Positions 30,428 through 31,788 of a stretch of DNA of 32,000 nucleotides are shown here, in pieces; the first letter of the stretch is position 1, and every line of letters starts with the position of its first letter. The notes beneath the pieces are model-generated. The model searched no databases, was not told the DNA's origin, and worked only from the letters and a program-made list of their open reading frames with translations. This stretch comes from Patescibacteria group bacterium (GTDB lineage Bacteria; Patescibacteriota; UBA1384; XYA2-FULL-43-10), in assembly GCA_041674405.1 (NCBI GenBank), contig JBAYVT010000001.1:210001-242000 (forward strand). The letters run 5' to 3'. The position numbers were made by a program, and so were the translations under genes.

Positions 30428-30688
30428 ATGAAACCAAGCGTATATATTTTAAAACTCGATGACGGAAGTTATTATATTGGATCAACTCGCGACTTAAAGA
30501 GACGCATTGCTGAACACCGGAAAGGTTTAAAAGCCAGTACAAGATTTTCTAAGAATCCCCAGATCGTATTCTTCCAGAATTTTGAAACTTATCATCAAGC
30601 TCGAATTATCGAGATAAAATTAAAATCCTATAAAAGTCGCAAAGTGATCGAAAAAATTATTAAGGAAGGAAAAATTAACAAATTATAA
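30428..30688 (+). CDS. GIY-YIG nuclease family protein (stand-alone URI domain)
   Basis: VYILKLDDGSYYIGSTRDLKRRIAEHRKG matches the GIY...YIG...R...E pattern. 86 aa. Confidence 0.85.
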   Translation: MKPSVYILKLDDGSYYIGSTRDLKRRIAEHRKGLKASTRFSKNPQIVFFQNFETYHQARIIEIKLKSYKSRKVIEKIIKEGKINKL

Positions 30689-30692
30689 TAAT

Positions 30693-30769
30693 GGGCCCGT
30701 AGCTCAGTTGGTTAGAGCGCATCGTTGACATCGATGAGGTCTGCAGTTCGAGTCTGCACGGGCCCACCA
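30693..30769 (+). tRNA. tRNA-Val (anticodon GAC), CCA encoded
   Basis: GGGCCCG TA GCTC AGTTGGTTA GAGC G CATCG TTGACAT CGATG AGGTC TGCAG TTCGAGT CTGCA CGGGCCC ACCA. Confidence 0.95.
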
Positions 30770-30799
30770 AAAAAATCCCTACTTTGTTAGGAATTTTTT
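30770..30799. terminator. bidirectional terminator between tRNA-Val and the XRE-Hsp20 gene
   Basis: aaaaaatcccta-ctttgt-taggaatttttt, with one mismatch in the stem. Confidence 0.55.
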
Positions 30800-30821: not shown

Positions 30822-31694
30822 TTACTTTTTGGCTTTTTTCTTGACCGCAATTTTGGCAGCTTGTTTCGGTGCGACTTTCGGTACAGTAATAGTCAAAATT
30901 CCGTTGTCCATCTCAGCTTCGGCCTTTTCTGATTTAACTTCGGATGGCAGTGTGAAGCTTCTAGTAAATGATCCAGTATACATTTCTTTGTGATAAAATC
31001 CCTCGTCTTTTTCTTCCTTTTCCTCTTTTTTCTCACCAGAAATTGTCATTATGTTATCGGCAACTTCAACAGTGACATCTTCCTCGGCAACTCCCGGAAG
31101 TTCGGCTTTGACTATGACAGCGTCTTTGGTTTCTTTTACATTGATTTTCGGCATTCCGCCAGCCTTGGCTGGGGTGACAACGCTTTCCTCAAAAAGACGA
31201 TCCATTGCATCACGGAGAGTAACCATTTCTCCGAAAGGGCGCCACGGCCCAATTTCTCTTGGCATAGAATTCTCCTTTACCCCGAGCCTGTCGAGGGGTT
31301 TACCCACCTCATCGAGCCTGTCGAGGGGTTTACCCACCTCATCGAGCCTGTCGAGGGGTTTACCCACCTCATCGAGCCTGCCGAGGAGTCTCTCGTCCTC
31401 AATTTGTCCGAGTTGCCCAGCAGTTGCGGGGTTATGATTAATAATTTTTATTGGTGAATTATTTTCAAACATTTGATTAATTTCTTTTTCAAAATCAAAT
31501 ATTTCCTCAAATGCAGAATTGAAAAAATTGCACATCGATACAACAAGGGGTAGTGATGGCATATATTTCCCCTGCTCAAGAGCGATCACAGACTGCCGGG
31601 AAATACCCAGAGCTTCGGCCAGTTCCTCTTGTGAAAGATCGTGTTGGCGACGAAGTTCGCGCAATCTGTTTTGAATGTTTGGTTCTTCTTTCAT
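30822..31694 (-). CDS. XRE-family HTH domain fused to an Hsp20/alpha-crystallin small heat-shock protein
   Basis: The N-terminus LRELRRQHDLSQEELAEALGISRQSVIALEQGK is an HTH_XRE domain. A 3x LDEVGKPLDR linker follows. The C-terminus WRPFGEM...VKAELPGVAEEDVTVEVADNIMTISGEK...GSFTRSFTLP...NGILTITVPK is an alpha-crystallin domain. An internal ATG at 31265 with its own AAGGAG SD (31272-31277) could also yield a stand-alone sHSP. Confidence 0.85.
   Translation of the reverse strand: MKEEPNIQNRLRELRRQHDLSQEELAEALGISRQSVIALEQGKYMPSLPLVVSMCNFFNSAFEEIFDFEKEINQMFENNSPIKIINHNPATAGQLGQIEDERLLGRLDEVGKPLDRLDEVGKPLDRLDEVGKPLDRLGVKENSMPREIGPWRPFGEMVTLRDAMDRLFEESVVTPAKAGGMPKINVKETKDAVIVKAELPGVAEEDVTVEVADNIMTISGEKKEEKEEKDEGFYHKEMYTGSFTRSFTLPSEVKSEKAEAEMDNGILTITVPKVAPKQAAKIAVKKKAKK
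31283..31388 (-). repeat. tandem repeat, 3 perfect 30-bp units plus a diverged partial unit, in-frame coding
   Basis: The unit cgagcctgtcgaggggtttacccacctcat occurs at 31283, 31313 and 31343. The partial fourth copy has 2 mismatches. It encodes the decapeptide LDEVGKPLDR. Confidence 0.9.
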
Positions 31695-31751
31695 AATTTT
31701 TTACTCATCAGTGATGGAATTCTGTGAAAGATCCTTGTGGTTAAATTTCAT

Positions 31752-31788
31752 TGATGTAAAGTTTACTTTACATCATGATCTTTGTCAA
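31752..31788 (-). promoter_or_regulatory. promoter TTGACA-17-TAAACT overlapped by an 11-bp-arm perfect palindrome (putative XRE operator)
   Basis: -35 is the rc of 31783-31788 and -10 is the rc of 31760-31765. The palindrome TGATGTAAAGT-tt-ACTTTACATCA spans 31752-31775 and covers the -10 and the spacer. Confidence 0.55.

Follow-up and report, generated by a model that had tools for sequence, protein, structure and literature searches.

Patescibacteria of the class Berkelbacteria encode a protein in which an XRE-type helix-turn-helix (HTH) DNA-binding domain is joined to a complete small heat-shock protein (sHSP), and we consider it reasonably likely that this protein is the master heat-shock repressor of the class, with the chaperone-based sensing proposed below. 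The representative studied here is encoded in a 32,000-nucleotide (nt) stretch of the Patescibacteria group bacterium assembly GCA_041674405.1 (contig JBAYVT010000001.1, positions 210,001 to 242,000 of the forward strand; hereafter, the window), where regulator and chaperone share the frame of a single open reading frame (ORF) of 290 amino acids (aa) on the minus strand (30822..31694, stop included). A palindrome, the predicted operator, overlaps the promoter of this gene; as the operator is also found at dnaK and groES-groEL, and as the class has no HrcA, the gene looks like a master heat-shock regulator and not only like an autoregulator. The elements listed in a first-pass annotation of the sequence (XRE domain, WxPF region, alpha-crystallin domain, promoter, palindrome, and an internal ATG with its Shine-Dalgarno (SD) sequence) were all located where that annotation had placed them. 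In window coordinates, the gene and its upstream region comprise the following features:

30822..31694, minus strand: full-length ORF with XRE HTH, linker and complete sHSP (ORF call, Pfam, homologues)
31461..31694, minus strand: XRE/Cro-C1 HTH domain, aa 1-78 (Pfam, AlphaFold2 model, solved relatives)
31503-31664, minus strand: Pfam HTH_3 match, aa 11-64 (53.3 bits)
31266..31460, minus strand: linker, hypervariable and predicted to be disordered, aa 79-143 (homologue alignment, AlphaFold2 model)
31437..31451, minus strand: hydrophobic, IxI-like island I-K-I-I-N in the linker, aa 82-86 (conservation among homologues)
31283..31386, minus strand: in-frame 30-bp tandem repeat, 3.5 copies, encoding (LDEVGKPLDR)n (repeat scan)
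31272..31277, minus strand: internal SD sequence AAGGAG, 6 nt ahead of the internal ATG (read in the sequence)
31263..31265, minus strand: internal in-frame ATG, codon 144 (Met144), start of a predicted free 147-aa sHSP (alignment)
31140..31265, minus strand: sHSP N-terminal region, aa 144-185, with conserved MPxExxPWRPF and SLRDAMDRLFE helix (alignment, model)
30846..31139, minus strand: alpha-crystallin domain (Pfam HSP20), aa 186-283 (Pfam, model, PDB profile matches)
30843..30851, minus strand: C-terminal I-x-I/V oligomerisation motif, I282-A-V284, in a Lys-rich tail (alignment, KIxIKKK conserved)
31783..31788, minus strand: -35 box TTGACA (conserved in all related loci)
31760..31765, minus strand: -10 box TAAACT after a 17-nt spacer, at the centre of the palindrome (promoter read)
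31752..31775, no strand assigned: predicted operator, perfect palindrome TGATGTAAAGT-NN-ACTTTACATCA with core TGTAAAG-N4-CTTTACA (pattern scans)

Architecture and distribution of the HTH-sHSP fusion

Membership of the N-terminal part in the XRE/Cro-C1 family is indicated by the Pfam HTH_3 match (E 2.8e-14; gathering cut-off, 23 bits), and that of the C-terminal part in the sHSP family by the match to HSP20 (PF00011; E 2.6e-23, 82.5 bits; gathering cut-off, 20.8); NCBIfam gave only sub-threshold similarity, to named sHSPs and to XRE antitoxins/repressors. For aa 8-70, the closest solved structures by profile are the PbsX-family regulator 9k3w, a protein of 65 aa (1.3e-17), and CylR2 (1utx; 1e-14), and as these relatives are small whole regulators, the HTH part, with the recognition helix G-I-S-R-Q-S-V-I-A-L-E, corresponds to an entire small dimeric repressor. 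For the C-terminal half the closest structure is wheat Hsp16.9 (1gme; E 1.4e-25). An alignment of 58 homologues showed the HTH to be highly conserved (LSQEELAxxLGISRQSIIALEQGKYMPSLPLA), along with the N-terminal region of the sHSP (MPxExxPWRPFRE..SLRDAMDRLFEDS) and its tail (K-I-x-I/V-K-K); both hallmarks of an sHSP, i.e., the N-terminal motif (P150-W-R-P-F154) and I282-A-V284, are conserved in these homologues, and a GxL motif is present as well. The sHSP half is thus predicted to be a complete, oligomerisation-competent small heat-shock protein.

The two halves are connected by a linker that ranges from 17 to 91 aa among homologues (median, 32.5) and that retains an [IV]-I-N island, with I, V or L in 50, I in 40 and N in 42 of the 58 sequences. 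In an alignment-based AlphaFold2 model, residues 10-78 form helices (predicted local distance difference test, pLDDT, 71-86), residues 79-155 are disordered, and a helix over 160-169 precedes a beta-sandwich over 183-273 (pLDDT about 72-75); its predicted template modelling score (pTM) of 0.33 fits a protein whose two domains are flexibly tethered. The IKIIN sequence of the linker resembles the IxI motifs for which the beta4/beta8 groove of alpha-crystallin domains is the docking site, and, as a speculation, it might hold the HTH to the sHSP part. A precomputed PF24250 tag on homologues, which denotes the archaeal HVO_2718 HTH family, was rejected; this family has no match in the genome that contains the window.

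The first-pass annotation had read the ORF as a translational fusion and had proposed looking for a stop codon between regulator and hsp20 in orthologous loci; in 38 of 41 related genomes the orthologous HTH and sHSP share one open frame, which bears the reading out. A search of 5.8 billion proteins yielded 1582 matches, the best 120 of which all carry PF01381 and PF00011 in 230-308 aa, originate from Patescibacteria or Berkelbacteria metagenome-assembled genomes (MAGs), and are labelled at most "Hsp20 family protein". Among 1.84 billion representatives clustered at 50% identity, 43 clusters matched below 1e-30; two matched stretches were present in about 65 of the top 150 clusters. About 35 named Candidatus Berkelbacteria/Patescibacteria MAG loci hold the fusion, including the complete genome CP011213.1. 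When 401 genomes drawn evenly from the phylum were examined, fusion-sized frames were found only in the order of the window (6/6) and in its class (10 full-size and two truncated frames among 17), and other Patescibacteria classes had only stand-alone homologues of the HTH, of 64-105 aa. Within the genomes sampled, the fusion is confined to one Patescibacteria class, Berkelbacteria. The two truncated forms (L153 in genome G096 and L154 in genome G412) are 121 and 142 aa long and combine the HTH with a weakly matching sHSP fragment.

The repeat between the two domains is a perfect 30-bp repeat (period 30, 98% matches) whose copy number varies between assemblies, and these properties would suit an explanation of the fusion as an assembly or sequencing artefact, or as a recent read-through of an adjacent regulator and hsp20, caused by the repeat. 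The repeat unit, however, is 10 codons long, such that changes in copy number preserve the frame, and the protein from a second assembly (P0002) is identical except for having exactly two repeat units fewer. The repeat thus hides no frameshift, and the concern that it might, raised in the first-pass annotation, is removed. Most homologues are moreover fused although they lack the repeat, the fusion is present in the 38 relatives as well as in dozens of independent MAGs, including CP011213.1, and no split arrangement was found among the stand-alone HTH loci of other classes. We consider the probability of an artefactual origin to be negligible and, from these sequence comparisons, regard it as excluded.

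Predicted operator, regulon and classical heat-shock regulators

The promoter of the fusion gene, TTGACA-17-TAAACT, is of the sigma-70 type (10/12 match), and its -10 box is covered by the two perfect 11-nt arms of the palindrome (31752-31762 and 31765-31775; TGATGTAAAGT-tt-ACTTTACATCA), which provides the palindromic operator at its own promoter that characterises an autoregulated XRE/Cro-C1 factor. In 30 of 30 related loci, TTGACA is followed by the operator in the layout cTTGACA-AA-ATGTAAAG-N4-CTTTACAT-T, where TACATT in the right arm is the -10 box, and the arrangement is retained in the most divergent class members; this conservation strengthens the original suggestion that the palindrome is an operator-like element over the promoter. 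Because the operator spans the spacer and the -10 box, repression would be expected to occur by promoter occlusion.

The genome (929,371 bp, 98.7% complete) was scanned for further copies. The strict palindrome, with up to three mismatches, was found at the fusion promoter and at one further site, which adjoins the end of a TTGACA box some 225 nt ahead of dnaK; the match that ranks third genome-wide follows TTGACAAT upstream of groES-groEL. A relaxed pattern (TGTMAAG-N4-CTTKACA) matched exactly three sites in the whole genome, i.e., those at the fusion gene, dnaK and groES-groEL, all of which immediately follow TTGACA, as compared to 0.0 sites in 20 shuffles. Each of the 41 relatives has one to four sites (mostly three), and the reversed control pattern had no match in these relatives and matched in only 4 of the 401 genomes of the phylum sample. 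Among 40 non-fusion sites fetched from relatives, 18 precede dnaK, 16 groES, two clpP and one a Clp_N/AAA+ ClpB/C-type gene; the remaining three are truncated or not assignable. Promoters of the regulon are of the sigma-70 type (TTGACA-17-TACATT). The first-pass annotation, which had proposed autoregulation, is thus supported as regards the operator at the gene's own promoter, and it understated the scope of the regulation, as the same operator also stands at dnaK and groES-groEL.

Classical heat-shock regulators were searched for in the same genome, and no match was found for HrcA (PF01628), for CtsR (PF05848) or for MerR_1 and hence for HspR (the MerR_1 control matched in 12 of 14 reference genomes); the HrcA-binding element CIRCE (controlling inverted repeat of chaperone expression; TTAGCACTC-N9-GAGTGCTAA) was likewise absent with up to three mismatches allowed, and the best match to RpoH (TIGR02392), at 170.6 bits against a cut-off of 323, was an RpoD-like sigma factor. 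Apart from that of the fusion, no HTH_3 domain was found in this genome. Across the phylum sample, HrcA was present in 335 of 377 genomes outside the class versus 0 of 24 inside it, and CIRCE was found in both HrcA-positive genomes that were inspected (G236 and G043).

The HTH and the operator sites occur together in 18 of the 24 class genomes and are both missing in four, which belong to the families f9 and f16; of the two discordant genomes, G293 has a degenerate operator, and G386 (300 contigs) has sites and no HTH match. Outside the class the operator pattern is rare (24 of 377 genomes), and in 13 of these 24 genomes a site lies within 3 kb of a stand-alone HTH homologue. Such homologues are 40-50% identical to the HTH of the fusion, have the recognition helix [ST]RQ[ST][IV]I in common with it, and are found (L155-L167; e.g., L158 435 and 2262, L166 2200, L165 2613) in conserved non-chaperone operons that encode a membrane protein of roughly 120 aa, a protein of roughly 350 aa and a CcdA/DsbD-like protein, with the palindrome TGT[AC]AAG-N4-CTT[TG]ACA at their own promoter or at the start of the operon. 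As the same palindrome stands beside stand-alone HTHs in unrelated operons, it appears to travel with the HTH subfamily and not with heat-shock genes, and this association outside the class provides the best argument that the fusion protein itself binds the palindrome, which we consider very probable. The stand-alone HTH operons appear to constitute another regulon, as yet undescribed, of this repressor subfamily.

Three further observations concern the distribution of these regulators and the dnaK locus. The class families f9 (G234, G249, G373) and f16 (G399) are without the fusion, the operator and HrcA. In the Patescibacteria family f23, HrcA was found in only 2 of 23 genomes, many of which are 75-88% complete, and the fusion is absent; this family may represent a further lineage with non-canonical heat-shock control, or the pattern may be an effect of incompleteness. 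Finally, outside the window, a GC-rich hairpin of about 40 nested pairs lies between the dnaK operator and the dnaK start (G000:C1:181765-181875; L002 1530-1640); its predicted stability is -71.5 kcal/mol (z-score -9.3; 0 of 200 shuffles were as stable), and it occurs once in the genome. An Rfam search of the dnaK leader gave no match. The hairpin may act as an RNA thermometer or as an attenuator, or it may be a structured cassette that was inserted here.

Two probable products from one gene and a proposed sensing mechanism

Met144 is invariant in all 58 aligned sequences and is preceded, 5-7 nt upstream, by AAGGAG, AGGGAG or AAGGAC in 26 of 28 related loci. Genome-wide, AAGGAG encodes only 8.8% of K-E dipeptides, and GGAG is found at -14..-5 of only 1.6% of in-frame internal ATGs; compared to this low background, the conserved "KE" is best read as a Shine-Dalgarno sequence kept at the nucleotide level. 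The strong internal SD and ATG (31265) to which the first-pass annotation had drawn attention have thus gained considerable support, and we regard use of the internal start as probable. As to the first start, the fusion gene in the window has a 58-nt leader with no recognisable SD, and in 20 of 39 distinct loci only 4-9 nt separate the -10 box from the first start codon, so that the mRNAs of these 20 loci would be leaderless. The gene thus probably has two products, the full-length repressor in small amounts and a free sHSP of 147 aa in abundance.

In the mechanism that we propose, the N-terminal, CylR2/PbsX-like XRE HTH would bind TGTAAAG-N4-CTTTACA as a dimer, and, as the palindrome overlaps the spacer and -10 box of the three promoters (its own and those of dnaK and groES-groEL), binding would block RNA polymerase. 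A flexible linker, tolerant of changes in length, would join this repressor to an oligomerising sHSP. Full-length repressor would be scarce, being translated from an SD-less start (leaderless in many relatives), and the free 147-aa sHSP, translated from the conserved internal AAGGAG-ATG of the same mRNA, would be abundant and would co-assemble with the sHSP part of the repressor through the alpha-crystallin domain and the IxI/V tail. Under heat or proteotoxic stress, the sHSP moieties would bind unfolding clients and/or change their oligomeric state, which would pull the repressor off the DNA and derepress dnaK, groESL and the gene itself; once DnaK and GroEL (and a Clp ATPase in some relatives) had cleared the clients, the repressor would be freed and repression restored. 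We rate client titration as the sensing step at slightly below an even chance. The full proposal of a one-gene proteostasis thermostat, in which a repressor and its own chaperone partner form hetero-oligomers that are titrated by unfolded proteins and which replaced HrcA-CIRCE at the root of Berkelbacteria, is put forward more tentatively still.

The same repressor and regulon could also operate as an intrinsic thermometer, with heat altering the sHSP oligomer or the HTH dimer and no titration by clients, in a manner that would resemble RheA of Streptomyces albus or a temperature-labile CylR2 dimer. Oligomers of sHSPs are known to shift to smaller species when heated, the closest solved relatives of the HTH are small dimeric repressors such as CylR2, and the conserved IxI/V tail and the IKIIN island of the linker suggest that oligomer contacts matter. 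The conserved, predicted co-production of a free sHSP, however, fits a titration or hetero-oligomer model at least equally well, and no sequence feature separates the thermometer from client titration; we consider the thermometer unlikely. A different possibility is that another regulator binds the palindrome and that the HTH-sHSP protein is merely a member of the regulon, serving as a DNA-tethered chaperone that guards the nucleoid or as a regulator of other targets. Such a regulator is conceivable given that the class is without all of the known heat-shock regulators, and two genomes (G018 and G386) have operator sites while the fusion gene went undetected in them. On the other hand, the fusion holds the only HTH_3 domain of its genome, the fusion gene always bears a site, site and HTH were lost together in f9 and f16, and stand-alone HTH homologues adjoin the same palindrome in operons unrelated to chaperones; this explanation appears to us more improbable than the thermometer.

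Several observations weigh against the fusion being a master repressor with chaperone-based sensing. The 41 related genomes are not independent samples, and, as recognition helix and operator hardly vary within the class, they provide no covariation signal; the sole variant operator, that of G293 (ATGTAAGG-TATA-TATTACAT), accompanies an unchanged helix. G386, a fragmented assembly, has operator sites without an HTH match, and G018, which looks complete and is likewise fragmented, keeps the operator at dnaK with no fusion detected. Truncated forms occur in the class members G096 and G412, and both genomes still carry operator sites. The low pTM renders the structural model uninformative on contacts between the domains. 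With regard to the two products, the class member G164 lacks the internal Met, such that the internal start is common and not universal, and the genome encodes a separate, operator-less sHSP, such that chaperone function does not strictly require the free isoform.

Relation to known systems, origin and neighbouring features

Textbook control of the bacterial heat-shock response involves sigma-32, HrcA, HspR and CtsR, with chaperones feeding back in trans. A close parallel to the system proposed here is HrcA-CIRCE, the class I heat-shock control with GroEL feedback (e.g., in Bacillus subtilis), in which a palindrome likewise lies over sigma-70-type promoters of dnaK and groESL and the repressor is thought to be coupled to chaperone availability; most other Patescibacteria have HrcA in this place of the regulon (335/377 genomes outside the class). 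The two differ in that the system described here has an XRE HTH, the operator TGTAAAG-N4-CTTTACA and a covalently fused sHSP, whereas HrcA uses a separate GroEL in trans. HspR, which binds the HspR-associated inverted repeat (HAIR) in Streptomyces, Helicobacter and Deinococcus, is also an autoregulated heat-shock repressor that acts on dnaK; it uses DnaK as a co-repressor and senses stress through titration of this chaperone by unfolded proteins. HspR is, however, a MerR-family protein with a non-covalent DnaK partner, and the genome studied here has no MerR_1 match. RheA of Streptomyces albus is a repressor dedicated to the sHSP gene hsp18 and senses temperature itself. RheA and its sHSP are separate genes and proteins, whereas the repressor polypeptide described here includes its sHSP; the resemblance to RheA is a purely functional one. 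The clp genes are repressed by CtsR, which acts as an intrinsic thermosensor, and in some relatives the operator is found at clpP and at a ClpB/C-type gene. CtsR itself is absent from the genome.

At the level of the individual domains, CylR2 (1utx) and 9k3w are proteins of about 65 aa that bind inverted repeats as dimers, and the stand-alone Patescibacteria homologues resemble them in size; unlike the fusion, they have no chaperone domain and act on unrelated target genes. Canonical sHSPs, such as wheat Hsp16.9 (1gme), Schizosaccharomyces pombe Hsp16 (3w1z) and Methanocaldococcus jannaschii Hsp16.5, have the N-terminal region, alpha-crystallin domain, GxL and I-x-I/V motifs in common with the C-terminal half. 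Genes that produce two isoforms from an internal start are exemplified by ClpB (95/80 kDa) and IF2, where the short form co-assembles with the long form; here, in comparison, the short form would lose the whole DNA-binding domain and thus be a pure chaperone subunit. The regulatory logic, i.e., a repressor coupled to chaperone availability, is therefore known from HrcA/GroEL and HspR/DnaK; the covalent sHSP fusion, the XRE domain, the operator and the likely dual-isoform gene are new. A full-text literature search found no described sHSP with a sequence-specific DNA-binding domain and nothing on an HTH-sHSP protein, a TGTAAAG-N4-CTTTACA operator or heat-shock control in Berkelbacteria.

If our reading is true, the fusion would represent a fifth solution to heat-shock control, one with the chaperone inside the repressor polypeptide, which appears to displace HrcA in a whole class of ultra-small, uncultivated bacteria, and it would be the first proposed case of a sequence-specific DNA-binding role for an sHSP. 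It would also provide a concrete example of the rewiring of core regulation in the reduced genomes of the candidate phyla radiation (CPR) as well as a compact natural stress-sensing module that consists of one gene and a 20-bp operator, and the predicted pair of isoforms from one ORF would open the titration model of heat-shock sensing, which has long been debated, to a direct test.

With regard to the origin of the fusion, the first-pass annotation had suggested two formerly separate genes. The stand-alone relatives of the HTH in other classes agree with this suggestion in a general sense only; an adjacent regulator-hsp20 pair, however, was not found, as none of 13 stand-alone HTH loci in other classes had an hsp20 gene within 2 kb. 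The sHSP half is closest to sHSPs of Chloroflexota (43-50% identity) and not to the second sHSP resident in the genome. This second gene (G000:C4:36570-36938) encodes a stand-alone protein of 122 aa, which has a short N-terminal region and shows 38% identity over the domain, and has a strong SD and a TTGACT-17-TACAAT promoter of its own without the operator; most relatives have a similar copy. The nearest free relatives of the sHSP half (L108-L152) are from Dehalococcoidia and Anaerolineae, and several Chloroflexota matches extend over 900-1270 nt, a hint that the sHSP genes at these loci are tandem or extended.

Downstream of the fusion gene, a tRNA-Val(GAC) gene (30693-30769, plus strand) converges on its 3' end. 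On the minus strand, a weak hairpin with a T-run behind it was read by eye at about 30769-30797; a terminator scan did not report it. Ahead of the tRNA gene, an 86-aa ORF (30428-30688, plus strand) begins like a GIY-YIG nuclease (YILKLDDGSYYIGST).

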